Source: an uncultured Gammaproteobacteria bacterium | GTDB taxonomy: Bacteria; Patescibacteriota; Microgenomatia; UBA12405 | DNA length: 64,000 nt | Assembly: GCA_964408995.1 (NCBI GenBank) | Contig: CAYPBP010000002.1 | Span: 32,491 to 96,490 of the forward strand | Reading direction: 5' to 3' | Part shown: one piece after another, positions 6,033-61,866 of the stretch | How the letters are laid out: each line of letters opens with the position of its first letter | Numbering within the stretch: the stretch's first letter is position 1 | The notes under the pieces: model-generated | What the model was told of the DNA's origin: nothing | What the model saw: only the letters and a program-made list of their open reading frames with translations | Databases searched by the model: none | Translations under genes and position numbers: made by a program

Positions 6033-6065
6033 GTATATACGCCCCGTACCACGGGGCGTATATAC
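6033..6065 (-). terminator. Intrinsic terminator downstream of the Lon-like gene (repeat family E)
   Basis: 13-bp stem tatatacgcccc(g) / (c)ggggcgtatata with loop taccac, followed on the minus strand by A/T-rich sequence. A near-identical stem recurs at 52424-52455. Confidence 0.6.
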
Positions 6066-11280: not shown

Positions 11281-11346
11281 CCGCATTAACGGGACTAAAA
11301 CCCACTCCTCTCAGATTTCATCTGAGGGACCTCCCTTGACAAGGAG
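11281..11346. repeat. Structured GC-rich multi-hairpin element (repeat family D, copy 1); could serve as a 3'UTR or terminator
   Basis: Three consecutive hairpins: cccgcattaacggg, cctctcagatttcatctgaggg and cctcccttgacaaggagg. On the minus strand the last is followed by a U-run. A related copy lies at 57500-57548. Confidence 0.45.
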
Positions 11347-11359
11347 GCTTTAAATATTT

Positions 11360-12500: not shown

Positions 12501-13934
12501 CTACTTCGTGTTATAGGCTATTATAACATCATTTATCTTAAAATCAATATAGGGCTTGAAAGTCATGCCACATTCAGTTCCAGACTTGATTTTTTCGATA
12601 ATATTTTTAGCTTGGTGGATACCTTCAACCTTGGTATCTTTGATGATTTTGTCATCACGTTTTAAGTGAATTAAATCCCCTTTACAGATTTCTCCTTTAG
12701 TACATTGAACGCCAGAAATACGAACTTTATCGATTTTGAATTCAGCTTTAATCAAACCTTCTCCAAGAACAGTTTCGTCAATGGTAGGTTCTAAAAGATG
12801 TAAAACTTGGTTTTGAATATCTTCAATAATTTCATAAATAATTCTGGATTCAAAAATTCTGACCTTAGTATTCTCGGCTATTTGAGCAATGTGCTTTGGG
12901 GTAGAAACATTGAAGGCAAAAATTTGAGCTTTGGAAGCTTCGGCCAAGAAAACATCATTGTCAGAAACAGCACCAATCCCAGAAGAAATTACAATTACAT
13001 CTTCATTAAAGCTATTTTCTAGAGCTTCTAAAGTACCCCTAACATCGGCTTTTAAGATTACTTTTAACTTAGGATTTTCTTCGGTAGATTCGAGTAAAAC
13101 TCGTTGTTCTTTACTTGGTTGTAAACATTCAGATTTAGTAGAAATAACGAGGCTGCTAACTGGTGGAACTTTTTCAAAGCCTAAAACTTCAACTGGAGTG
13201 CTAGGACCAGCTTCTTTTAGAGAAACACCATTACAATCTATCATGGCTTTAACTTTACAAAGAATGTCTTCACAGTAAACAATGTCACCAACACGGAGAG
13301 TACCGTTGTTGACGATTAAGGAAGCCACTGGACCTCTAGCTTTATCGAGACGAGATTCGATAATAACAGCTTCAAAACAACCAGCTGGATCAGCTTGTAA
13401 CTCAAGAATTTCAGCATTTAATAAAATCATTTCTAAAAGATCTTCAATACCTTGACCAGTTTTGGCAGAAACTGGAAGAACAGCTAATTGACCACCATAT
13501 TCTTCGGGAGTATAGCCTAATTCAACTAATTGACCTTTAACTTTATCAGGAGAAGCATTTTCTAAATCAATTTTGTTCATGGCCACAATGAAAGGAATAT
13601 CGGTTTTTTTGATATGTTCGATACATTCTTTGGTTTGAGGCATGATGCCTTCGACAGCAGAAACAACTAAAATTATCATGTCGGTGGCTTTGGCACCACA
13701 AGCACGCATGTTTATAAAAGCAGCATGGCCGGGAGTATCGATAAAAGTGATTAGTTTAGCTTCGCCGTTTTTTTCAGTAACTTTAGCTTGATAAGCACCA
13801 ATGTGTTGAGTAATACCACCGGCTTCTTTTTTCCAGACATTAGTAGAACGAATCTTGTCTAAAAGAGAGGTTTTACCATGATCAATATGACCCATGACGG
13901 CAACGATCGGTGGACGAGTTAATTTATTAGTCAT
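12501..13934 (-). CDS. infB: Translation initiation factor IF-2 (short form: G domain plus C-terminal domains)
   Basis: [17 protein letters not shown] and NKID G-motifs. I place the start at the ATG (complement of 13932-13934), preceded by GGGGAG 9 nt upstream. The track's longer version begins with GTG inside a hairpin. Confidence 0.88.
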
Positions 13935-13939
13935 ATTTT

Positions 13940-13972
13940 CAATCTCCCCTAGCCCCTCTTTCACAAGAGGGG
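13940..13972. repeat. Family A GC-rich palindromic element, copy A1, in the nusA-infB intercistronic region
   Basis: caatctcccctagcccctctttcacaagagggg. The same ~35-nt motif occurs at 49741, 57555 and 61263. Confidence 0.7.
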
Positions 13973-13982
13973 AAAATTTAAT

Positions 13983-14987
13983 CTATTTTTTAGTTGAAGC
14001 TGGTTTAGTATCAGAACCAAGTTTGATTTCTAGACCAACTAATTGACCTGCCAAACGAACGTTTTCTCCACCACCACCAATAGCTAGAGCTAATTGTGAT
14101 TCTGGAATAGTAACGTTGGCATAATTGTCTGTTATTTCAATAATTTTGACGTCTTGGGCTGGAGAAAGAGCTTGAGCAATAAATTGGCTCAAGTTTTGAG
14201 AAAAACCAACAACGTCAACTTTTTCTTCGCTTGGAAGTTCACCTAAAATGGCTTGAATTCGAGAACCTTTTTGACCAATACAAGAACCAACAGGATCAAT
14301 GCCTGGTTGACTTGAAGAAACAGCAATTTTAGTTCTTTCACCTGGAGTTCTGGCAATGCGCTCAATTATGACTGAACCATTAGCAACTTCTGGAACTTCA
14401 CGAGCAAACAACTCTTTGACAAAATTATTATCTCTTCTTGAGAGAATGATTTCACTACGACCATTGTCGTCATGAGTAATTTCTTTTAATAAGAAGAATT
14501 TTTTAGCACCTAAAGGTAATATTTCATTTCTAATTTGTTCGTCTTTTGGACAAATTCCTTCGGTCTTGCCAACTCCAACAACCATTTTATAAGAATCATT
14601 TTTTAAAACAACACAAGAAATTAGAGTGCCAAGCTTTTTTTCAAATTCGGCCACAACTGATTCTTTTTCAGCTTCGTGAATTTTTTGATCAATAACTTGT
14701 TTGGCAGTTTGAGCAGCAATACGACCAAAACCTGGAGGAGTAACATCAGTTTTATTATCACCATCAACTTTGAAAACTCTAAAAGAGCCAATTTCTGGAG
14801 ATAATTCAGCCACAAATTGATCTTCTTCTGGAACTATGATGCCGTGTTCTTTTTGATCACGTTTATAAGCAAAAATTAAACCAAGCTCGATAGAATCCAA
14901 AATAGATTGAACATCAATATTTCTTTCACCGGCAATTTGAGCTACGGCAGCTGCAAACTCTGTTTTAGGTAGTTTTTTTAAGTCCAT
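13983..14987 (-). CDS. nusA: Transcription termination/antitermination factor NusA
   Basis: 334 aa with N-terminal domain, S1 and KH domains (GIDPVGSCIGQKGSRIQ). AAGGAGAA SD upstream of the ATG. nusA-infB synteny. Confidence 0.9.
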   Translation of the reverse strand: MDLKKLPKTEFAAAVAQIAGERNIDVQSILDSIELGLIFAYKRDQKEHGIIVPEEDQFVAELSPEIGSFRVFKVDGDNKTDVTPPGFGRIAAQTAKQVIDQKIHEAEKESVVAEFEKKLGTLISCVVLKNDSYKMVVGVGKTEGICPKDEQIRNEILPLGAKKFFLLKEITHDDNGRSEIILSRRDNNFVKELFAREVPEVANGSVIIERIARTPGERTKIAVSSSQPGIDPVGSCIGQKGSRIQAILGELPSEEKVDVVGFSQNLSQFIAQALSPAQDVKIIEITDNYANVTIPESQLALAIGGGGENVRLAGQLVGLEIKLGSDTKPASTKK

Positions 14988-26198: not shown

Positions 26199-26256
26199 TA
26201 AGCTATTCTATCAATTACTAATCGAAAGAAGATAAATCAGATGATATATTCAGTTA

Positions 26257-26877
26257 ATGAATAAAAAAATTATCTTATTTGATATTGATGAAACTTTAAT
26301 GGGACTAGATAAGATGGCAGTAATGTTTTATGAAAAGTTGGCAAAGCAACTTGAAGTAACAACCGAGGAAATTATTGAATTGAAAGAACAATACAAATTA
26401 ACACTAAATAAATCTGGTGATTATTTACATAGTAATTTAATATTATTTCTTAAAGAGATAACAGGTAAAAAGGAAAAAGAAATAGAAGATCCATTTGAAG
26501 ATAAAGAAAATTATAAAAAATCGTTACACCCTGAGGTAAAAGAAAATATAGAAAAAATAAGTAAAGATTTTAGAATAGGAGTCTACTCTGAGGGATTTTA
26601 TGAATACCAAAAAAAGAAAGTTTTTTGGTCTGGAATTGGAGATTTTTTTGATGAAGAACTTATTTTTATAACTCAAAATAAATCTGACCCTGAGTTTCTT
26701 AAAACATTACCAGAGGGAGCAATCATTATTGATGATAAAAAAGAAAAAATTCAAAAGTTAAAAGAAGCTGGAAGATTTAATTTTGTTTGGATTAATAGAA
26801 AAAATGATGAAGTTATGGATGATGTTAAAACAGTTAAAAACTTAAATGAATTTGCTGACTTACTTGGACAGCTCTAA
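26257..26877 (+). CDS. HAD-superfamily hydrolase (paralog 1)
   Basis: Motif I FDIDETL, motif II Ser (GVYSEG), motif III Lys, motif IV IIDDKKE. Confidence 0.65.
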   Translation: MNKKIILFDIDETLMGLDKMAVMFYEKLAKQLEVTTEEIIELKEQYKLTLNKSGDYLHSNLILFLKEITGKKEKEIEDPFEDKENYKKSLHPEVKENIEKISKDFRIGVYSEGFYEYQKKKVFWSGIGDFFDEELIFITQNKSDPEFLKTLPEGAIIIDDKKEKIQKLKEAGRFNFVWINRKNDEVMDDVKTVKNLNEFADLLGQL

Positions 26878-26894
26878 TTTGTTATAAATGGGTA

Positions 26895-27521
26895 ATGGAA
26901 AAACAAATTATTTTATTCGACTTAGATGATACTTTATTTAGTAAAACGGAATATCTTAAAAGATTGAATGATAATTTGGCCAGGGAATGTAATACTTCAA
27001 GTGAACAAATTGCTGATTTTGGAAATAAATATTTTGAAAGTTTAGGAAACTCTAACGATTTTCATATAAAGAAATATTTGGAATATTTAGATCAAAATTT
27101 TAATAAAGAAATTGATTTGGAAAATTTTACTACTGATAAGTTGAAAATTTATTCTGGATCTTTGTTTTCAGACACTATTCCTGTTTTAGAAAAATTGAAA
27201 GATAATTTTAGATTGGGTATTTATTCTCAAGGATTTGATGATTGTCAAAGAATTAAAATTAATGAATCTGGAATTGGAAATTATTTTGATGAAGAACTTA
27301 TTTTTATTGCTAGAAATAAATCAGATCCTAAGTTTATTGAAAGATTACCAGATGGATCAACAATAGTTGATGATAAAAAAGAAAAGTTTGAAGCATTAAA
27401 AGAAACTGAAAGATTTAATCTTGTTTGGATTAACAGAAAAGACGATGAGGTAATGGATGGAATAGAAACAATTAGAAACTTAGAAAAATTAGTTGATTTG
27501 GTTAAAGTGAGAGCGGTTTAG
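26895..27521 (+). CDS. HAD-superfamily hydrolase (paralog 2; tandem duplicate of 26257-26877)
   Basis: FDLDDTL ... IVDDKKEKFEALKETERFNLVWINRKDDEVMD, collinear with paralog 1 (shared GIG-YFDEELIFI and FVWINRK blocks). Confidence 0.65.
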   Translation: MEKQIILFDLDDTLFSKTEYLKRLNDNLARECNTSSEQIADFGNKYFESLGNSNDFHIKKYLEYLDQNFNKEIDLENFTTDKLKIYSGSLFSDTIPVLEKLKDNFRLGIYSQGFDDCQRIKINESGIGNYFDEELIFIARNKSDPKFIERLPDGSTIVDDKKEKFEALKETERFNLVWINRKDDEVMDGIETIRNLEKLVDLVKVRAV

Positions 27522-31009: not shown

Positions 31010-32053
31010 TTATTTTCTTAAAATTTTGGCTTTGAGACGAAGGAGTTTCCAGCGAACTTTATCAACAGTGTTATAAACTTTATATAAAGCTGGGTTGATA
31101 ATTAAATCAAAAGTACCCACATATTCGACTAATTGACCACCATATCCTTGTTTAAATCGATGAAAACCATAACCATTTTCGTTTTCTTTGGCCCTTGGAC
31201 CAAGACAGCCCCACATATCAAAAGATTTGCATTTTAATTTTTGACCAAGACGAATTACTTCCCACATTAACAAAGTTGGAGCCATGGCTTGTCGATTAAC
31301 ATCAAGAGAAGCACCATAAGGATAAAAAATCTTGTCCCCTACTTTAAATATCATAAAAGCAGAAAGAACTTGGTTTTGGTAAGAAGCCAACATAATGTGA
31401 ATCATGCCAGTGTCTTTTAATTTTTTCCATAAATCTCGATGGTATTGTTGAGAATGAAGATAGAAACCTTGGCGCTTGGTGGTGTCAAAAAGTAATTTTA
31501 AATAAATTTCAAAACCTTTGTCGTCAGTTTGCTCACGAACTTCAACACCATAACGATTGGCAACTCGAATATTGTAACGAGTTTTGGGATGCATTGATTC
31601 TAAAATTTGAGTTTCTGATTGATTTAAATTGACTAATAAATTGTGAGAGTAAAAAGCAACTTTAGGTGATTTTTTGAGATGACTAAAATGAGGTTTTTGA
31701 TTAACTAAAGTTTCATTGCCAAGACTATCAAAATTTTTATAAACAAAATTTGGCTCAAATTTTACAAAAATAGCTTTTTCTTGTTTGGCAATTTTTTTTA
31801 TTTCTTCAATCATTTGATCATCTATCTCTGGGCCACGAAGAATGGTGCCGATGGACAATTTGGTTTTAGGAATTCTATGGAAACTAATAGAATATGCAGA
31901 AACCATTTTTTCTTTATCATCAAAAACACCAAATCGATAGACTTTGTGGCCTTGAGAAGTTTGAAAATCTCCCCAATCCCAAGTTTGAACTGGATGCTTT
32001 ATCAAAGAATCATATTTTTCTTTGTCTTTAATATCCAAGATTTTAGTAAGCAT
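31010..32053 (-). CDS. FemAB-family aminoacyl-tRNA-dependent peptidoglycan cross-bridge transferase
   Basis: 347 aa with the conserved KTRYNIRVANRYGVEV block and a GNAT-like duplicated fold. Confidence 0.7.
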   Translation of the reverse strand: MLTKILDIKDKEKYDSLIKHPVQTWDWGDFQTSQGHKVYRFGVFDDKEKMVSAYSISFHRIPKTKLSIGTILRGPEIDDQMIEEIKKIAKQEKAIFVKFEPNFVYKNFDSLGNETLVNQKPHFSHLKKSPKVAFYSHNLLVNLNQSETQILESMHPKTRYNIRVANRYGVEVREQTDDKGFEIYLKLLFDTTKRQGFYLHSQQYHRDLWKKLKDTGMIHIMLASYQNQVLSAFMIFKVGDKIFYPYGASLDVNRQAMAPTLLMWEVIRLGQKLKCKSFDMWGCLGPRAKENENGYGFHRFKQGYGGQLVEYVGTFDLIINPALYKVYNTVDKVRWKLLRLKAKILRK

Positions 32054-32129
32054 AATATAAGTTTATCAAAAAACCCTTTGGTACTTCGTACCACCTTTCC
32101 ATTGACAGGGCACTTTTATTAATAGATAA

Positions 32130-34044: not shown

Positions 34045-35982
34045 TTAATAAATATCTGGGTCGTAGATGATGTCATCATCATTTCTTGATTTTGGGTGAC
34101 GATAATCACGAATAATTTCGATACTTTCTTCAAACTCAACTAAATCACCTGGGATATCTGCTAAAAAGCGACTTGGTTCGTTTAAACTGCTTTTGCCAAA
34201 AAACAAACGACGAGAGGCATAAGAAATATAAAGATAATCCTTGGCCCTGGTAATGCCCACATAACAAAGACGACGCTCTTCTTCTATTTGAGCTTCATCA
34301 ATTAAACATCTTGAATGAGGCAAAATTCCTTCTTCAAATCCAACCATAAAAACGACTTCAAACTCTAGACCTTTGGCGCTGTGAAGAGTCATTAATTTAA
34401 CTCCATCTCTGTTTTCTTTTTTCTTATTTTTTTCTTGAAGAGAATATTCTTGCTGGACTAAAGTTATGTTTTCTAAAAAGGCAGTTAAACTTGGATAAGC
34501 AGTGGCGACAGATTTTAATTCTTTAATATTTTCAATTCTCTTTTGATCTTCTTCATCTTTGGTATCGAATTTATCAAGATAACCAGAATTGACAACTAAA
34601 GATTCTAGAATTTGAAGAGAAGTTAAATTTTTTAAATCAATATTTTTTATATGTTCTAAAAGAAGAGATTTTTTACGTTTACCTAAAGCTTTTTGGATCC
34701 TTTCTTCGGAGATATGATCGGATGGATTACTGGTAAAACGAAGCATGGATAAAATATCTTTGACTTCGGCTCGCTCGTAGAAACGAATGCCACCTAATAA
34801 AACATAAGGGATATTAAGTCGTAAAAAAGCTTCTTCCAAAACACGAGACTGAGCATTCATTCGATAAAGAACAGCCATATTCCTTAATGGAATTTTCATA
34901 TTATCATTGATGAATTTTATTTTTTGAGCAATAAAATCAGATTCAGCAACTTCGGATTCGGCTTCAAAAATTTTGATTTTATCTTGGGAAAACTTTTTGG
35001 TAAATAATTTTAAAATTGGATGAGAATTATTTTTGGAAATAACTGAATTGGCAGCATCGAGAATAATCTGAGTCGAACGATAATTTTCTTCGAGATTAAT
35101 AACTTTAGTATTTTTAAAATCAGCAGTAAAACTAATAAGATTACGATAATCGGCTCCACGCCAACCATAGATGGCTTGAGAAGCATCGCCGACAACTGTA
35201 ATTTGTTTATATTTTTGAGCTAAAAGCTTGGTTAAAAGATATTGGATTTGATTGGTGTCTTGATACTCATCAACCATAATGAATTTATAGATTTCTTGAT
35301 ACTTAGCTAAAACCTGTGGATGTTCTAAAAATAATTCAACTGTTTTAAATAAAAGATCATTAAAATCGAGAGCATGAAATTCAAATAATTTTTTTTGATA
35401 AAGAGAGTAAATTTTACTGGCATAATCTTGCCAAAAACCATGGCTTTGAGCAATCATATCTTTTGGAGTTTGAAAAGAATTTTTAGCGGCTTCGATGTAA
35501 TAGAGAACACTTGATGGTTTAAATTCTTTGGTAGTTAGTCCTAATTCGTGAAGAATATTTTTAATTAAATTTTCTTGATCATTAGAATCGTAAATAACAA
35601 AAGTTGGAGGAATGCCAATATTGTTACCATCAATTCTTAAAACTCGACAACAAAAAGAATGAAAAGTTCCCGCCGACAGCTTCGCAGTCTTGGCGGGCAG
35701 GCCCGCTTCGTATCCAGATTTGGCGGGCAAACCGACTTTATTTTTTTCTTTTGAAATTAATTGTTCCATTCTCTTTTTCATTTCATCAGCGGCTTTGTTG
35801 GTGAAAGTTAAAAGTAAAACTTCTGATGGTTTAGCAATTTTTTGTTGGATGAAATAAGCCACCCGATGAGTTAGAACACGAGTTTTACCTGAGCCAGCAC
35901 CAGCCAATAGAAGCAAGGGTGAACCAATATGAGTCACCGCTTCTTTTTGAGGTGGATTTAAACCGTCTAGAATATTAACCAT
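34045..35982 (-). CDS. uvrD: UvrD/PcrA-family DNA helicase
   Basis: LNPPQKEAVTHIGSPLLLLAGAGSGKTRVLTHRVAYF, TFTNKAADEM and the downstream SF1 motifs. Contains a GC-rich in-frame insert at 35668-35736. Confidence 0.88.
   Translation of the reverse strand: MVNILDGLNPPQKEAVTHIGSPLLLLAGAGSGKTRVLTHRVAYFIQQKIAKPSEVLLLTFTNKAADEMKKRMEQLISKEKNKVGLPAKSGYEAGLPAKTAKLSAGTFHSFCCRVLRIDGNNIGIPPTFVIYDSNDQENLIKNILHELGLTTKEFKPSSVLYYIEAAKNSFQTPKDMIAQSHGFWQDYASKIYSLYQKKLFEFHALDFNDLLFKTVELFLEHPQVLAKYQEIYKFIMVDEYQDTNQIQYLLTKLLAQKYKQITVVGDASQAIYGWRGADYRNLISFTADFKNTKVINLEENYRSTQIILDAANSVISKNNSHPILKLFTKKFSQDKIKIFEAESEVAESDFIAQKIKFINDNMKIPLRNMAVLYRMNAQSRVLEEAFLRLNIPYVLLGGIRFYERAEVKDILSMLRFTSNPSDHISEERIQKALGKRKKSLLLEHIKNIDLKNLTSLQILESLVVNSGYLDKFDTKDEEDQKRIENIKELKSVATAYPSLTAFLENITLVQQEYSLQEKNKKKENRDGVKLMTLHSAKGLEFEVVFMVGFEEGILPHSRCLIDEAQIEEERRLCYVGITRAKDYLYISYASRRLFFGKSSLNEPSRFLADIPGDLVEFEESIEIIRDYRHPKSRNDDDIIYDPDIY
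35668..35736. repeat. GC-rich palindromic/tandem element (family C) in-frame within uvrD
   Basis: ttcccgccgacagcttcgcagtcttggcgggcaggcccgcttcgtatccagatttggcgggcaaaccgac, which encodes VGLPAKSGYEAGLPAKTAKLSAG between helicase motifs Ia and Ib. GC far above the local background. Confidence 0.6.
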
Positions 35983-43602: not shown

Positions 43603-44916
43603 TTATTTTTTCTTTAGAGTTAAGAATGAAAAAGAAACAAAAAGAAGAGATATTATGGATAATAAAATTGTTGGAACTAAGCTTCCAGTGACTGGAACTC
43701 CAGAACTAGTGCTTGGTAGAGTCGTAGTATTACGAGCAACTGCTGTAGGAATTGCGGTTGGAATTAGAGTTGGAACTACAGTTGGTTTAACTGTAGGAAT
43801 TGCGGTTGGAATTAGAGTTGGAGTTGGAGTAGTAGCTGATGGTGAAGCCGAATAAGATAATGGACTATCAGTGGCTAAAACAGTAAATTTTCTAGAAATA
43901 ATTTTTTCAATTCCATCTTGTATAACAGTAACTGTAATTGTGTGTTCACCTGGAGTTAAGTTTTTGGGTGGTGACCAATTCCAAGAACCATCGTCTTTTG
44001 TTTTAACTTCGCCAGTGTAAACAACTGGTGATTCAACTTTTATTTTAATTTTGGAATTGGCAGGACCAGTACCAAAAAAATCGGGCTTTTTGGTTGATAA
44101 AGATTCATTATCTTTTGGATTTAAAATATCTAGCTCTTTAGCTTTTGGCATTGGATCGATAACAGGTAAGGAACCAACATTAGATTCAGAATCAAAATTA
44201 ACAGAAGAAGCTGAAAATTCATTTTGACCTAAAATAATGTCTGGACTAGGATTATTTCTAGAGGTATTGGAACTGATTTGAGTTATATTTTTTTCTTTAT
44301 CTATAACAACAATTTCTTGAGGTGTATTTTCTTTTGGAGTGAATCTATCAGTTGTCTCTTCATTAAAACTATTAGCTAAAGAAATATTCCAATTACCTGA
44401 AGATGTTACTAGAGCAGATAAGGGTGAAGCACCTGGAATATTAATAAACACTATTACCTTACTAGCTGCTTTTAATTCTGGAGTAAAAACTCTTCCCCAA
44501 GCTAAATTAGAAGATGGGGCTAAAGAATTTGGTTTCTGGGCTGTTTTGAATTTGTACAAAGACTCATTGTATTTTTTACCATCACTAATGATTGTATATT
44601 TATATTCAGTTTCGTCTTCTAGGTTAGAGATATCAAAATAATGTATTTTTGTTTTTTCATTGTCATCATTAGTAACTCCATTTCTAATGTTTTGATTATT
44701 AATTGATAAATTAGACAAACATTCAGCTTCTGTTGTAAAAGAAATAGAAACTGAATTATTAGTTATATTTGTTATTTGAGTGTTTTTAGGGATACAGTCA
44801 CTACTAGCTTTGGAAACAACATTGGTGCCGTTATTGTTTAAAACAACACCGACATAAATTCCTCCTATTAAAATAATAAGACCTAAGATAGTAGGAATTC
44901 TTTTTTCTTTAAGCAT
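43603..44916 (-). CDS. Cell-surface protein with FN3/Ig-like domains, a P/T-rich stalk and a sortase-like C-terminal sorting signal
   Basis: N-terminal TM/signal, beta-rich repeats, (IPT/PTV) repeats, and a C-terminal ...LPSTSSGVPVTG + hydrophobic helix + KKK. Confidence 0.5.
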   Translation of the reverse strand: MLKEKRIPTILGLIILIGGIYVGVVLNNNGTNVVSKASSDCIPKNTQITNITNNSVSISFTTEAECLSNLSINNQNIRNGVTNDDNEKTKIHYFDISNLEDETEYKYTIISDGKKYNESLYKFKTAQKPNSLAPSSNLAWGRVFTPELKAASKVIVFINIPGASPLSALVTSSGNWNISLANSFNEETTDRFTPKENTPQEIVVIDKEKNITQISSNTSRNNPSPDIILGQNEFSASSVNFDSESNVGSLPVIDPMPKAKELDILNPKDNESLSTKKPDFFGTGPANSKIKIKVESPVVYTGEVKTKDDGSWNWSPPKNLTPGEHTITVTVIQDGIEKIISRKFTVLATDSPLSYSASPSATTPTPTLIPTAIPTVKPTVVPTLIPTAIPTAVARNTTTLPSTSSGVPVTGSLVPTILLSIISLLFVSFSFLTLKKK

Positions 44917-45369
44917 TTAAGGGTTTAAACCATATGATGTTTCATCATAATTTAATTCATCTGATGTTTCATCATAATTTAATTCATCTGATGTTTCATC
45001 ATAATTTAATTCATCTGATGTTTCATCATAATTTAATTCAATTAGTTCAACTGGGGTTGGTTCTGGAGTTGGTGTGGGTGTAGGAGTTGGTGTGGGTGTA
45101 GGAGTTGGATTGAAAACTGAAAAACTAAAATTTTCTTCTATATTTTTATTTCTTGATTCAATTTCGGACATTACAGATAAATCTAGATTCGGATTTATTT
45201 CTTTTAATAAAGAATTGTTTTCAACTTCTTTTTGAGGTTTTAGTAAGTTAAAATAACTTTTTTGGATTAAAAAAATAAAAACCGTCATCAAAGTAAGAAA
45301 AGAAATCAAAACAAAGTATAAAGAGAGTTTATTCTTTTTCATTATTGTCTGATAAAAAATATAAATCAT
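44917..45369 (-). CDS. Membrane-anchored repeat protein ((PT)n linker plus 4 repeats of ELNYDETSD)
   Basis: N-terminal TM, PTPTPTPTPTPTPEP, then four tandem nonapeptide repeats. Confidence 0.45.
   Translation of the reverse strand: MIYIFYQTIMKKNKLSLYFVLISFLTLMTVFIFLIQKSYFNLLKPQKEVENNSLLKEINPNLDLSVMSEIESRNKNIEENFSFSVFNPTPTPTPTPTPTPTPEPTPVELIELNYDETSDELNYDETSDELNYDETSDELNYDETSYGLNP
44932..45039. repeat. Tandem 27-bp coding repeat, 4 copies
   Basis: (c)atctgatgtttcatcataatttaattc, 4 copies, encoding ELNYDETSD on the minus strand. An adjacent 18-bp-period (PT) repeat lies at 45056-45112. Confidence 0.85.
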
Positions 45370-48645: not shown

Positions 48646-50079
48646 ATGAACTCAAAAAAATTTTTTATAACTACCCCAATTTATTACATTAACGATATTC
48701 CTCATATAGGACATACCTGTAGTACTGTGGCGGCGGATATTGTGGCCCGATTTCACAGAGCAAAAAATGAAGAAGTATTTTTTCTAACTGGCACTGATGA
48801 ACATGGACAAAAAGTAGCTGAACCAGCAATCAAAGCAAATCTAAATCCAAAAGAATATTGTGACAGTATTGCTCCCCGATTTGAAGAAGCTTGGAAGGCT
48901 TTAAATATTAGTCATGATTTTTTTATTAGAACAACCGATTCTAGACATGAAAAAATAGTCAATGAATTTTTACAAAAAATTTATGACAAGGGTGATGTTT
49001 ATAAAGCAAAATATGAAGGCTGGTATTGTGTCGGCTGTGAAAAGTTTTTAACTGAAGTGGAATTAGTTGACAAACATTGTTCTCTTCATCCACCAGAGAA
49101 AACTGTTTTTAAAAGTGAAGAAAATTGGTTTTTTAAATTAAGCAAATATATTCCTCAAATTATTAAATTAATTGAGGATGATAAAACTAATTATATTTTC
49201 CCTGAAGGAAAAAGATTAGAAATATTATCAAAACTTAAAAAAGAAGAAATTAGAGATATTTCAATTTCCAGAGAAAACGTGGAATGGGGCATTCCTACAC
49301 CTTGGGATTCTAAACAAACTGTCTATGTGTGGTTTGACGCTTTAATTAATTATTACAGTGCAACTCAATTTGTTGAAGGTAAAAAAGATTTTTGGCCAGC
49401 AAGTGTTCACTTATTAGCTAAAGATATTTTGTGGTTTCATACAGTTATTTGGCAAGCCATGCTTTTATCAGCTGACTTACCATTACCTATAAAAACTTTT
49501 ACTCATAGTTTTTATTTAATTGATGGTAATAAAATGTCAAAATCTTTGGGAAATGTAATTAGCCCAGGTCAATTAGTAGAAACTTTTGGAGTTGATGGAT
49601 CTAGGTATTTAATTGCCAGATCTTTTCCTGGAGAAAATGATAGTGATGTAGGAATTGAAAGATTTAAGGAAAAATATAATGCTGATTTAGCAAATAATTT
49701 AGGGAATTTAATTTCTAGAGTAGCAAAGTTAGCTGAAGGCCAATCTCAATCTTCCCCCGACCCCTTCTTTGACAAGACGGGGAGTTTTAATGAAGAATTT
49801 GAAAACTTAATTGAGAAATTTGATTTTAATCAGGCGATTGCTTTAGTTTTTGATAAATGGATTGATAGTTCAAATTTAAAATTGAATCAAACTACACCAT
49901 GGAAATTAGAAAAAGATAATACTGATAGAATTACAGTCTTAAATGAATGTATCAAAAACATTTTGAAAGCTGCTTTCCATTTGCAAATTTTTATGCCAGA
50001 AGTGGCCCAAAAAATTGAAAATTGTTTCAAAGATGAAGTTAAACCACTTGAGGAATCTTTATTTCCAAGAATAAAATAA
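48646..50079 (+). CDS. metG: Methionyl-tRNA synthetase (short form, no C-terminal tRNA-binding appendix)
   Basis: HIGH (PHIGHTCS) and KMSKS (KMSKSLGN). Contains the in-frame family A element at 49741-49783. Confidence 0.95.
   Translation: MNSKKFFITTPIYYINDIPHIGHTCSTVAADIVARFHRAKNEEVFFLTGTDEHGQKVAEPAIKANLNPKEYCDSIAPRFEEAWKALNISHDFFIRTTDSRHEKIVNEFLQKIYDKGDVYKAKYEGWYCVGCEKFLTEVELVDKHCSLHPPEKTVFKSEENWFFKLSKYIPQIIKLIEDDKTNYIFPEGKRLEILSKLKKEEIRDISISRENVEWGIPTPWDSKQTVYVWFDALINYYSATQFVEGKKDFWPASVHLLAKDILWFHTVIWQAMLLSADLPLPIKTFTHSFYLIDGNKMSKSLGNVISPGQLVETFGVDGSRYLIARSFPGENDSDVGIERFKEKYNADLANNLGNLISRVAKLAEGQSQSSPDPFFDKTGSFNEEFENLIEKFDFNQAIALVFDKWIDSSNLKLNQTTPWKLEKDNTDRITVLNECIKNILKAAFHLQIFMPEVAQKIENCFKDEVKPLEESLFPRIK
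49741..49783. repeat. Family A GC-rich palindromic element, copy A4, in-frame in metG
   Basis: caatctcaatcttcccccgaccccttctttgacaagacgggga, which encodes QSQSSPDPFFDKTG in the anticodon-binding domain. Confidence 0.65.
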
Positions 50080-51429: not shown

Positions 51430-51472
51430 AAGTTATTATAACAAATCCACCCCTACCCCTCCTTTGATCCTC

Positions 51473-51509
51473 CTTCGTCCCGCAGCGGCGGGACTACGGA
51501 CGGACGAAG
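51473..51509. repeat. GC-rich palindromic element (family B, copy 2) downstream of folD
   Basis: cttcgtcccgcagcggcgggactacggacggacgaag. Alternative nested stems, preceded by a C-rich tract. Confidence 0.55.
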
Positions 51510-51525
51510 CAATAGGGGGTAATTT

Positions 51526-52423: not shown

Positions 52424-52455
52424 TTTATTTAATTATATACGCCCCTCGGTGCGGG
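52424..52455 (-). terminator. Intrinsic terminator downstream of map (repeat family E, copy 2)
   Basis: tatatacgcccctcggtgcggggcgtatata, the same 12-bp stem as at 6033-6065. Confidence 0.6.
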
Positions 52456-52467
52456 GCGTATATATGT

Positions 52468-57426: not shown

Positions 57427-57499
57427 CTGACTATTTTACTACATATTTGTTGAATTTTATAAAAAATGATTAAAACTCCCTTTGCCCTTAATAAAAACC

Positions 57500-57548
57500 C
57501 ACCTTCCCTGAAGGGCCCCTTCCTCCCTTGAAAAGGGAGGTCTATAAA
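57500..57548. repeat. Family D multi-hairpin element (copy 2) in the korA / DEAD-helicase divergent intergenic region
   Basis: aaaacccaccttccctgaagggccccttcctcccttgaaaagggagg, similar to 11300-11346. Confidence 0.5.
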
Positions 57549-57554
57549 GTTTTT

Positions 57555-57589
57555 CAATCTCCCCCTGCCCCCTCTTTCACAAGAGGGGG
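57555..57589. repeat. Family A element, copy A2 (intergenic, directly after the family D copy)
   Basis: caatctccccctgccccctctttcacaagaggggg. Confidence 0.7.
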
Positions 57590-57714
57590 TGAAAATAAAT
57601 TTTATATTTGCAATTGATGGTGATTATGATAGACTACAAGCTGATTTAGGCAAATTGGTGCATTTATACTTTGTGGGCACCGCAAGTTTTTAGGTTACGG
57701 CCGAAAAACAGTGT

Positions 57715-60599: not shown

Positions 60600-61802
60600 T
60601 CATTTTTTCTTCTCTTTTAAATATTTTTTATCTTTTAGTTTTTCAGGCAAAAGGCTTTCTTTTGTGTACATTTCATAGTCTTTGCCATAATCTAATTCTT
60701 TCATTAACTTAGTTTCGGCGTTGCGGAGATTAAGCGGTATTGGTAGATTACCAAACTGCTGAACATCGGCAAGAGCGGCTAAATAAGCATCATAAGCAGA
60801 ACGATCTTTAGGACTTTTGGCTAGATAAACAACTCCATGAGCTAGGTTTTCTCGACACTCTGGATAGCCAATTGTTTCAACAGCTCTGAAAACTTCATTG
60901 GCCATCATTAAAGCTGAAGAATTGGCAATACCAATATCTTCACTGGCAAAAATAACCATACGACGGGCAATAAATTTTGGGTCTTCGCCAGCATCAATCA
61001 TTCTGGCTAAATAATAAAGAGCAGCATCTGGATTACTGGCTCGCATAGATTTTATAAAAGCAGAAATGGTATTGAAGTGATCCTCCCCTTTTTTATCGAA
61101 ACGTAAAAAACTATTTTGAAGAGTTGATTTTAAGTTTTCTTTAGAAAGATCGTTATATAAAGTGAAAGCATTATCAATCATGGTTAGAGCCTGACGAGCA
61201 TCACCATTGGCCATTTGAATTAGCCATTCTTTGGCATCTTTTTTGATAGTTAATTTTTTATTCAATCTCCCTAAATCCCTCTTTGACAAGAGGGACTTAT
61301 TAATGACATCAATTGCTCTAGTGATTATTTTGTCAATATCTTCATCTGACAATTCTTTGAGGGTGAAAACTCGACAACGAGATAAGAGTGGAGAAATAAC
61401 TTCAAAACTGGGATTTTCGGTGGTGGCACCGATTAAAGTTAGAAGACCGGATTCTACATAGGGTAGCAAAAAATCTTGTTGAGCTTTATTAAAACGATGA
61501 ATTTCGTCTAAAAAAAGAATTACTCTTTGAATAGGTCTGGCTTGAGCAATAATTTTTTTAATATCGTCTTTGCTAGCAGAAACAGCTGATAATTCAAAAA
61601 TCTGGGCATCTGTTTCTTTGGCAATAATTTTGGCTAAAGTGGTTTTACCAACCCCTGGAGGACCCCAAAAAATCATAGAAAAGAATTGTTTGGATTCGAT
61701 TAATTTCCTTAAAGGTTTTCCCTCCCCAACTAAATGAGATTGACCAATAAATTCATCAAGGTTTTTAGGACGTAGAAGAGAGGCTAGCGGTTGAGTAAGC
61801 AT
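60600..61802 (-). CDS. rarA: Replication-associated recombination protein A (MgsA/RarA AAA+ ATPase)
   Basis: LRPKNLDEFIGQ, Walker A GPPGVGKTT, and the MgsA C-terminal helical domain. I place the start at MLTQPL. Contains the in-frame family A element. Confidence 0.9.
   Translation of the reverse strand: MLTQPLASLLRPKNLDEFIGQSHLVGEGKPLRKLIESKQFFSMIFWGPPGVGKTTLAKIIAKETDAQIFELSAVSASKDDIKKIIAQARPIQRVILFLDEIHRFNKAQQDFLLPYVESGLLTLIGATTENPSFEVISPLLSRCRVFTLKELSDEDIDKIITRAIDVINKSLLSKRDLGRLNKKLTIKKDAKEWLIQMANGDARQALTMIDNAFTLYNDLSKENLKSTLQNSFLRFDKKGEDHFNTISAFIKSMRASNPDAALYYLARMIDAGEDPKFIARRMVIFASEDIGIANSSALMMANEVFRAVETIGYPECRENLAHGVVYLAKSPKDRSAYDAYLAALADVQQFGNLPIPLNLRNAETKLMKELDYGKDYEMYTKESLLPEKLKDKKYLKEKKK
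61263..61295. repeat. Family A element, copy A3, in-frame in rarA
   Basis: caatctccctaaatccctctttgacaagaggga, which encodes (reverse strand) ...KSLLSKRDLGRL... in the linker between the AAA+ and C-terminal domains. Confidence 0.65.
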
Positions 61803-61866
61803 GTTTTGGGTTTTATTTGGGTAATAACCCATTTTAACATACTAAAAATAATTTTTAGTTATTATC

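Follow-up and report, generated by a model that had tools for sequence, protein, structure and literature searches.

An in-frame hairpin repeat in metG as a probable member of a family of short selfish repeats in Shapirobacteria

In a 64,000-nucleotide stretch of contig CAYPBP010000002.1 (hereafter, the window), a G+C-rich hairpin repeat, copy A4, was found in frame inside metG, the gene encoding methionyl-tRNA synthetase (MetRS). A4 is probably one copy of a short selfish hairpin-repeat family of Shapirobacteria and related Patescibacteria, comparable to the repetitive extragenic palindromes (REPs) and the Rickettsia palindromic elements (RPEs), whose sequence would be renewed by an element-restricted process driven by DUF559 nucleases. 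The core of this reading, a selfish repeat family that is read through in genes, is well supported, and mobilization by DUF559 and element-restricted conversion are advanced as indirectly supported hypotheses. What is new here is the presence of a REP/RPE-like family in a new host group, with an unusual nuclease as the candidate for its mobilization. The features of the metG copy are the following.

48646 to 50079, + strand: metG, the host gene of A4, encoding a methionyl-tRNA synthetase of 477 aa, as recognized from the open reading frame (ORF), homologues and solved-structure matches.
49741 to 49783, + strand: copy A4 of the repeat, in frame in metG as codons 366-379, read as QSQSSPDPFFDKTG; covariance model match of 55.2 bits.
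49741 to 49752, + strand: tandem CAATCT-CAATCT duplication (QS-QS) inside A4, from the sequence and the comparison of carriers.
49761 to 49782, + strand: hairpin core of A4, CCCCTTCTT-TGAC-AAGACGGGG, in which a T.C mismatch marks its subfamily.

The metG product was assigned to methionyl-tRNA synthetase by its best solved-structure match (2CSX, E 7e-115) and 8,000 homologues. A first-pass annotation, made from the sequence alone, had proposed that a palindromic element begins here on a codon boundary and is translated without a stop or frameshift, and the reading frame bore this out: position 49741 is the first base of codon 366 (CAA; (49741-48646)/3 = 365), the 14 codons from 49741 to 49782 give QSQSSPDPFFDKTG with neither stop nor frameshift, the 43rd base (49783) begins the next codon, AGT, and the product across A4 contains ..AEGQSQSSPDPFFDKTGSFNEEF... 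The internal duplication that it had reported was also present, with CAATCT occurring twice in tandem (49741-49746 and 49747-49752), which no other carrier seen has. The palindromic character held for 49761-49782 and not for the rest of the element: the palindrome is confined to CCCC-T-TCTT / TGAC / AAGA-C-GGGG, a 9-position stem with one T.C mismatch, and A4 is therefore not palindromic over its entire length. The repeat segments have a GC content of ~0.45-0.53, against 31% G+C in the window, and A4 is free of stop codons in frames +1, +2, -1 and -2. Judging from the intact ORF, the copy would be read through by plain translation; an intein, an intron or a programmed bypass was rejected, the unit being too short and devoid of an ORF, with the frame intact.

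The MetRS alignment comprised the window protein and its 120 closest proteins (121 sequences), and the closest orthologues, as well as the related loci, are named Candidatus Shapirobacteria (Microgenomates, Patescibacteria). The site following ..SRVAKLAEG(Q) was hypervariable among these sequences. The peptide SSPxPFFDKTG was found at the identical junction in 18 of the 121, all of them Shapirobacteria MetRS sequences with 70-91% identity, so that the suggestion of 14 lineage-specific residues could not be maintained, and only the QS duplication is private to the window. Other hairpin-type inserts were carried by 21 of the 121 (NPSKSPFDKGD, KPFPNPSLDRAG, SPFIPPLRKGG, PPTASQSWWAGKTG and the nested SSPNPFFDPPLRRAGKTG), and the remaining sequences were ~4 residues shorter at the site, typically reading KTEEEKFEFD. 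In the codon alignment, filled alleles read GGN CAA, then TCT TCC CCC GAC CCC TTC TTT GAC AAG ACG GGG, then AGT TTT, and empty alleles read GGN CAA, then AAC AGT GAA GTA GAA AAT TAT, then AGT TTT. In this way, 33 nt stand in place of 21 AT-rich nt, with a net gain of 4 aa; in the window, 39 nt (49744-49782) replace the 21 owing to the extra CAA TCT, with a net gain of 6 aa, which differs from the plain insertion of 14 residues first described.

That the segment was inserted and is not ancestral MetRS sequence follows from the two closest metG relatives, P0002 and P0003, both of which lack the element, as does the closest relative of the window rarA (P0122), discussed below. The residues common to MetRS orthologues are shared because the element itself is shared, and not through protein ancestry in unrelated taxa, which the first-pass annotation had named as the finding that would speak against an insertion. 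Outside the site, the window metG shares 90-91% DNA identity with the two empty alleles, against 87% with the filled allele P0001. The bulged A4-type variant was also found at sites other than metG (L027, L086) and is read in frame as QSSP(D/N)PFFDKTG in unrelated proteins (L163, L199), and an AT-decayed copy of the element, QLASNSLTNKIG, was recognized in the MetRS of P0047, which had been scored as empty. On a neighbour-joining tree of the 121 MetRS proteins with the loop masked, the allele required 16 parsimony (Fitch) steps, against a mean of 17.1 and a minimum of 13 for shuffled labels; this count is an overestimate because some alleles scored as empty are AT-decayed copies, and the scatter among the closest relatives is nonetheless real. 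One ancient insertion followed by vertical descent was rejected, since the allele is scattered like random labels and the window lies nearer to empty alleles than to filled P0001. The metG copy is thus an old allele common to several genomes, whose presence or absence is independent of the gene tree.

Because the same allele occurs at the DNA level in at least seven independent assemblies, A4 itself is no assembly artefact, and for the 6-nt duplication an artefact is possible. It is scarcely credible that the 14 residues are an ordinary fast-evolving MetRS loop whose likeness to other loci results from coincidence or assembly error. An ordinary loop would suit the length variability of this site in MetRS generally and the occurrence of the peptide in many orthologues, but it would not account for the same 31-33 nt at unrelated loci, with 0 matches in shuffles, nor for a third-position G+C content (GC3) of 0.78 inside the segment against ~0.2 in the gene flanks, and both the empty closest relatives and the recurrence among independent assemblies speak against it.

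In the alignment with 2CSX and 1A8H, the site of insertion corresponds to the connection that follows the first, conserved helix of the anticodon-binding domain (L-A-N-N-L-G-N-L-x-S-R), a connection whose length also varies in the Aquifex and Thermus MetRS. In an AlphaFold2 model of the window MetRS, built with 34 orthologues (mean predicted local distance difference test score, pLDDT, 84; predicted template modeling score, pTM, 0.86), a helix at residues 337-362 is followed by a non-regular stretch at 363-382 and by a further helix at 383-390. The stretch has the lowest confidence of the domain (mean of 54 for block 371-380, and below 50 for residues 373-376), and the element residues 366-379 lie wholly within it. 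The model thus agrees with the surface loop that had been expected in this domain: the metG copy would become a Ser/Pro/Asp-rich loop between its first two helices, a flexible surface loop being the predicted kind of permissive site, and the element-encoded peptide would carry no function of its own.

The dispersed nature of the repeat, which had been called family A, was confirmed with a covariance model derived from 23 aligned copies. Exactly four strong matches were found in the window (46-56 bits, E 6e-11 to 9e-9), all on the + strand, at 61258-61300 (55.8 bits), 49744-49786 (55.2 bits), 13935-13977 (47.8 bits) and 57551-57593 (46.4 bits); the next match reached 16.8 bits, and the family pattern had 0 matches in shuffled sequence. 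Besides A4, the copies are the following.

61263 to 61295, + strand: copy A3, in the rarA/mgsA ORF in reverse orientation; 55.8 bits.
13940 to 13972, + strand: copy A1, between the nusA stop (13983) and the infB ATG (13933); 47.8 bits.
57555 to 57589, + strand: copy A2, intergenic, beside two more G+C-rich hairpins at 57500-57545; 46.4 bits.

In each unit, of ~33-45 nt (11-15 residues), a T-rich lead is followed by the tail (C/A)AATC(T/C), which is unpaired, and by a C-rich arm; a spacer of 3-4 nt, in many cases TAAA, separates this arm from a stem-loop with an 8-9-bp G+C stem and a TGAC or TCAC loop, and some subfamilies have a trailing ACTT. In the alignment of 23 copies, 88% of the stem cells were paired, and five of the nine stem pairs showed changes on both sides (CG 12 / UA 11; CG 16 / UA 6; UA 13 / CG 8). 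The observed covariation was reached in 0 of 500 shuffles, and shifting the partner dropped pairing to 56-73%; therefore, the hairpin itself is preserved across subfamilies. A search of Rfam gave no match on the elements at the gathering threshold or at E<=1. Stop codons are absent from three to four of the six frames of a unit, according to the subfamily.

Copy A1 fills the entire nusA-infB spacer (13933-13985), and the minus strand reads hairpin-GGGGAGATTGAAAAT-ATG(infB), so that A1 may supply the infB ribosome-binding site; moreover, the frame runs open from A1 into infB, and a GTG at 13964 could act as a start. A general role of the repeat as a ribosome-binding-site or terminator module was rejected, given that an ATG opening an ORF lies no farther than 15 nt from the GATT end in only 11 of 150 copies, and that there is no peak after stop codons. 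Directly adjoining A2, at 57480-57545, lie two G+C hairpins, CCTTCCCTGAAGGG and CCTCCCTTGAAAAGGGAGG, of which the GAAA-loop type resembles the hairpins flanking DUF559 genes at loci L206 and L210. The weak match of 16.8 bits, at 31960-31998 (AAATCTCCCCAATCCCAAGTTTGAACTGGAT), is found within a minus-strand ORF (31010..32062) and may be an AT-decayed in-gene copy. A related intergenic hairpin, CCTCCCTTGACAAGGAGG, with the TTGACAAG center in common, was observed at 11319-11347, preceded by a second hairpin, CCCTCAGAT..ATCTGAGGG.

Two of the four window copies lie inside ORFs. The second of them, A3, is located in rarA/mgsA (60600..61832, minus strand) and is read in frame as ..KSLLSKRDLGRLN.., the ORF here reading ..NKSLLSKRDLGRLNKKLT... 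The rarA orthologue P0122, 93% identical, lacks A3; like most others, it reads ..VL-KTK-I.KDAKEWLI and is 15 residues shorter, and ~45 of 120 rarA orthologues carry assorted hairpin-type inserts at the same junction. The 45 extra nt of the window rarA correspond to the unit plus A-rich bases, with no target-site duplication. In the TatD gene, downstream of metG, in-frame copies occur in several relatives, two of them in L039, and none in the window. Different subfamilies thus fill the same loops of metG, rarA and tatD in different genomes. No target-site duplication was found in the filled and empty comparisons of metG and rarA, and a clean cut-and-paste insertion was rejected on this ground and because metG loses 21 nt and rarA gains 45 nt including A-rich extras.

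Sequence-unrelated G+C-rich inserts were also observed in TatD (L041, 5369-6148) and in MetRS and RarA orthologues (P0079, P0101, P0058, P0126 and others), reading ..PPTASQSWRSS.., SPFIPPLRKGG and SPLHQGEIPRKGRGV. With such unrelated types in loops of the same proteins, genes in this clade are colonized by several distinct hairpin families. A compound G+C-rich palindrome of another family, ..CCTTCGTCCCGCAGCGGCGGGACTACGGACGGACGAAG.., with a local GC of 0.67, lies at 51446-51520, just downstream of folD, and may be related to the PPTASQSW/LRRAG-type inserts of the orthologues.

Beyond the window, public metagenome contigs were scanned with a degenerate pattern, which retrieved at least 129 copies in at least 120 loci. 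Among the matches listed, 50 of 129 copies are located 30 codons or more inside ORFs of at least 120 codons, 26 in sense and 24 in antisense, and the share inside long ORFs comes to 39-43%. The in-gene copies are read in several frames, as NPSKSPFDKGD, IIPPGPPFTRGEE, SPLSKGDLGGL, SPLVKGGQGG and PSCQRGGRGEI. As coding density is near 90%, intergenic sites are still favored by the copies; the share of ~40% is, however, far above that described for REPs. Most copies are single, and adjacent inverted pairs are few (L197, 537-628; L172, 7814-7893 and 3650-3744; L180).

The description of A4 as a repeat merely tolerated in an essential gene did not hold, given that synonymous sites inside the element are conserved far above the flanks. 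Eight element-carrying metG alleles were compared, from genomes with 70-91% identity between their MetRS proteins. Within the element, their third codon positions showed 93% pairwise identity and 78% G+C, against 53-56% identity and 20-25% G+C in the 40 codons on each side. The 10 codons immediately next to the element were at background third-position identity (0.40 and 0.60), that is, without hitch-hiking. Since identity and GC3 are high inside the element and not in its flanks, the DNA itself is maintained: the metG element is kept as a nucleotide sequence, beyond mere tolerance or peptide conservation. A recent exchange of metG segments was rejected, as the adjacent codons of carriers have no excess of synonymous similarity. 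Vertical descent, recent gene-segment exchange and random independent insertion each fail at least one of the metG observations, and an element-restricted process would fit them, either ectopic conversion from other copies or site-specific loss and re-insertion.

The copies also display a strand polarity. The third-codon-position GC skew of neighbor genes, taken on the AATC-bearing strand, was positive for 97 of 124 copies, and, in a test restricted to pattern-ascertained loci with one copy per locus and the element masked, at 74 of 96 loci (p ~9e-8). This bias holds where the neighbor genes share the strand of the element (29 vs 16). The orientation of copies relative to genes was weak (42 same vs 63 opposite), and a tie between orientation and transcription was rejected, the third-position GC skew being tracked instead. 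The polarity, therefore, follows a replication-type strand asymmetry and not transcription. In the window, 44 of the 52 long ORFs are on the minus strand and the + strand is G-rich from ~24 kb on, an arrangement contrary to the usual one, in which gene strand and GC skew are co-oriented.

Conservation, covariation and polarity could together be expected of a host-selected cis-element compatible with coding, in which the hairpin would be a binding or processing site in DNA or RNA, such as a polar chromosome-organizing or repair signal, kept by purifying selection. Its synonymous sites are conserved (0.93) without hitch-hiking, its stem has compensatory changes, its orientation follows the third-position GC skew at 74 of 96 loci, and identical subfamily sequences are found in genomes whose MetRS are just ~70% identical. 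A host signal is nonetheless rather unlikely, as the closest relatives differ in its presence or absence at metG and rarA, copies decay toward AT in some lineages (P0047), and positions are very heterogeneous, ranging from loops of unrelated proteins to intergenic regions. Moreover, there is no systematic Shine-Dalgarno or terminator placement and no Rfam match, and the turnover of subfamilies and the inverted doublets are typical of mobile repeats.

The selfish repeat family gained a candidate mobilizing partner from the genes found between its copies. At loci L041 and L127, a 145-aa ORF is enclosed by two inverted copies of one subfamily, ~470 nt from each other, and the C-terminus of the ORF, ..LPCQREN, is encoded by the right-hand copy. 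This ORF belongs to DUF559 (PF04480; E 6e-26 and 2e-26), which has a Vsr-like PD-(D/E)xK nuclease fold, and a 0.5-kb unit with the same ends as the repeats thus encodes DUF559 and not a recognized transposase. Six of 11 DUF559 genes were bracketed in the order element(+), gene, element(-), the AATC ends being on the outside and no gap exceeding 60 nt, and three more had a copy on one side or nearby; these 11 genes come from element-selected loci, and hence the test was repeated starting from the protein. The search retrieved 570 DUF559 homologues at E<=1e-10, those named being Shapirobacteria, Woesebacteria or Patescibacteria proteins. Among the best 120 of these 570, about half end in hairpin-type peptides of various kinds, and different DUF559 lineages bear different hairpin types at their ends. 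In five DUF559 loci sampled through the protein only (L206-L210; model matches at E<0.01), every match lay within ~85 nt upstream of the nuclease start codon, which was the case in three of the five loci (L207, 32.8 bits; L209, 30.1 and 20.2 bits; L206, 25.8 bits). Inverted repeats were present on both sides of the DUF559 gene in L206 and L210, one of 24 nt at 100% and one of 23 nt at 91%, and L208 had a weak hairpin match only.

A selfish repeat could also be moved by another agent, whether a REP-associated tyrosine transposase (RAYT) or IS200-like transposase located elsewhere, or replication slippage or template switching at hairpins. The DUF559 genes would then be preferred neighbors or targets, for instance free-standing homing nucleases that enter repeat doublets. 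Strand polarity would be the product of single-strand, replication-coupled HUH transposition, the gene-less inverted doublets (L197, L172, L180) could be empty targets, CGTC-tagged REPs likewise have no dedicated transposase (PMC3733652), and the clade of Vsr and DUF559 includes a homing endonuclease, since Vsr, DUF559 and a group I intron homing endonuclease fell into one clade of a survey of PD-(D/E)xK proteins (PMC3424549). Another mover is, however, distinctly unlikely: whether loci were selected by the element or by the protein, it is DUF559 that the inverted copies enclose, and DUF559 lineages differ in their end hairpin types, as expected of a cognate pair. No RAYT-like gene was seen beside any copy, although no systematic RAYT search was made.

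With a selfish repeat family and DUF559 as its partner, the proposed mechanism would be as follows. Copies landing in stop-free frames, in loops that accept extra residues, would be translated as such. The sequence of the element would be renewed by a DNA-level process confined to it, ectopic gene conversion or site-specific re-insertion, and the agent of this renewal would be DUF559, a small Vsr-like PD-(D/E)xK nuclease, around whose genes inverted copies are placed in a manner that may be likened to that in which REPs bracket RAYT transposase genes. It is possible, if doubtful in this full form, that Patescibacteria harbor a kind of mobile element so far undescribed. Such an element would consist of a ~0.5-kb DUF559 unit bounded by inverted AATC-tagged hairpins and of 35-nt solo hairpins that colonize loops of essential genes in frame, with their sequence held free of change by gene conversion or re-insertion triggered by the nuclease and restricted to the element, and with a fixed replication polarity, as a REP/RAYT-like system built on a PD-(D/E)xK nuclease.

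Several points weigh against a selfish family renewed through DUF559. To our knowledge, DUF559 is not a known transposase; no DUF559 gene was found in the 64-kb window, and the nuclease link is an association only. The filled and empty comparisons reveal replacement or extra bases without target-site duplication, which fits no standard transposition scheme, and the occupancy of hot spots may reflect survivorship and not targeting. Translation of the metG segment was deduced from the intact ORF alone. The patchiness was assessed on a simple neighbour-joining tree, with a step count inflated by decayed copies scored as empty (P0047). Finally, the conserved synonymous sites, the stem covariation and the strand polarity could instead mean a host function of the hairpin.

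The first-pass annotation had compared the in-frame copy in metG to the RPEs. According to PMC10969869, RPEs (Ogata et al. 2000, 2002) are ~150-bp repeats, nearly half of which lie in frame in genes, and the RPE-1 unit measures ~100-150 bp (~30-50 residues). The parallel stands as an analogy, strengthened by the second in-frame copy in rarA, and does not extend to membership of an RPE family, since size and end tag differ. RPE-1 to RPE-10 and the repeats described here are alike in being dispersed palindromic repeats of a small AT-rich genome with no transposase of their own, and in having a large share of copies inside unrelated, often essential genes, with the frame kept and a fold-compatible peptide; the Shapirobacteria units are, in contrast, of 33-45 nt (11-15 aa), compared with ~100-150 bp for RPE-1. 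RPE-4 and RPE-6 are CGTC REPs (PMC3733652), whereas the unpaired end is here (C/A)AATC(T/C), CGTC occurring only in the stem of the bulged subfamily, on the reverse strand. Further differences are the host, which is a member of the Patescibacteria and not an alphaproteobacterium, the presence of copies in several frames and both orientations, the candidate DUF559 nuclease bracketed by repeats, and the in-gene nucleotide conservation and strand polarity found in this study. By size and end tag as described, the Shapirobacteria repeats are thus set apart from the RPE families.

GTAG- and CGTC-tagged REPs have 8-9-bp stems and 4-5-nt loops, with intragenic copies in several species (Di Nocera et al. 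2013, PMC3733652), and no dedicated transposase has been reported for the CGTC type (PMC3733652). The likeness to REP/REPIN-RAYT systems ('REPtrons', PMC3733652) resides in the imperfect palindrome of 20-40 nt with an 8-9-bp G+C stem, a 4-5-nt loop and an unpaired end tag, in the many dispersed copies, several subfamilies and occasional intragenic copies, in a small nuclease gene bracketed by inverted copies, and perhaps in the few inverted doublets. The repeats described here differ by an AATC tag in place of GTAG or CGTC, by ~40% of intragenic copies against mainly extragenic REPs, and by a bracketed gene that encodes the PD-(D/E)xK Vsr-like DUF559 (PF04480) and not an IS200/IS605-type HUH tyrosine transposase. 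The units match RPEs in behavior and are nearer to REPs in size and shape. Miniature inverted-repeat transposable elements are different, as the unit is a single hairpin with an asymmetric tail, with no terminal inverted repeats around a non-coding core and no target-site duplication.

The Vsr-family homing endonuclease I-Bth0305I (Vsr/DUF559 clade in PMC3424549) belongs to the same nuclease fold family as DUF559, and the patchy presence or absence at the identical junction of a conserved gene is what homing predicts. However, the metG and rarA copies (33-45 nt) hold no nuclease ORF, intron or intein, the ORF being found only in the 0.5-kb units, and the copies occupy many unrelated sites and not one cognate site; the nuclease activity of DUF559 is itself a prediction from its sequence family. 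The GC clusters and byp elements of yeast mitochondria are short G+C-rich mobile palindromes of a very AT-rich genome that also occur inside coding genes, and byps are skipped by the ribosome. These belong to a eukaryotic organelle and have no sequence relationship to the present repeats, in which the intact frame argues for plain translation.

In-frame colonization of genes by palindromic repeats is known mainly from Rickettsia and a few REP-rich species. In the literature consulted, whose coverage was incomplete, no account was found of such repeats in bacteria of the candidate phyla radiation (CPR) or of DUF559 linked to repeats. The high frequency of in-gene copies (~40%) in CPR bacteria would mark this colonization as a recurrent outcome in reduced, AT-rich genomes; an essential tRNA synthetase and rarA are among the genes affected in these hosts of minimal genome, and the finding bears on how 'insertions' in CPR proteins are read in annotation and phylogenetics. 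The association with DUF559 offers a concrete candidate function for a very widespread uncharacterized nuclease family, and possibly an answer to how short repeats without a transposase (CGTC REPs, RPEs) spread. The combination of synonymous conservation inside the element only, presence or absence independent of the tree, and strand polarity points to a repair or conversion process restricted to the element.

Other repeats were observed in the window. Two copies of a terminator-like hairpin, TATATACGCCCC-loop-GGGGCGTATATA, at 6036-6064 and 52436-52464, constitute a separate repeat family. At 34219-34307 on the minus strand, within a long ORF, a sub-threshold Rfam match to RF03531 ('sRNA included into helicase gene'; 49.7 bits vs a gathering threshold of 65.2) probably reflects conserved coding sequence. 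A 300-nt direct repeat with 77% identity (26549-26848 and 27187-27486) extends across the adjacent + strand ORFs 26245-26877 and 26859-27521 and has the appearance of a gene duplicated in tandem, in a region where ORFs otherwise lie on the minus strand. In-ORF tandem repeats, consisting of GTTGGA-rich 12/36-nt units and of four 27-nt units, were found at 43743-43834 and 44924-45058.

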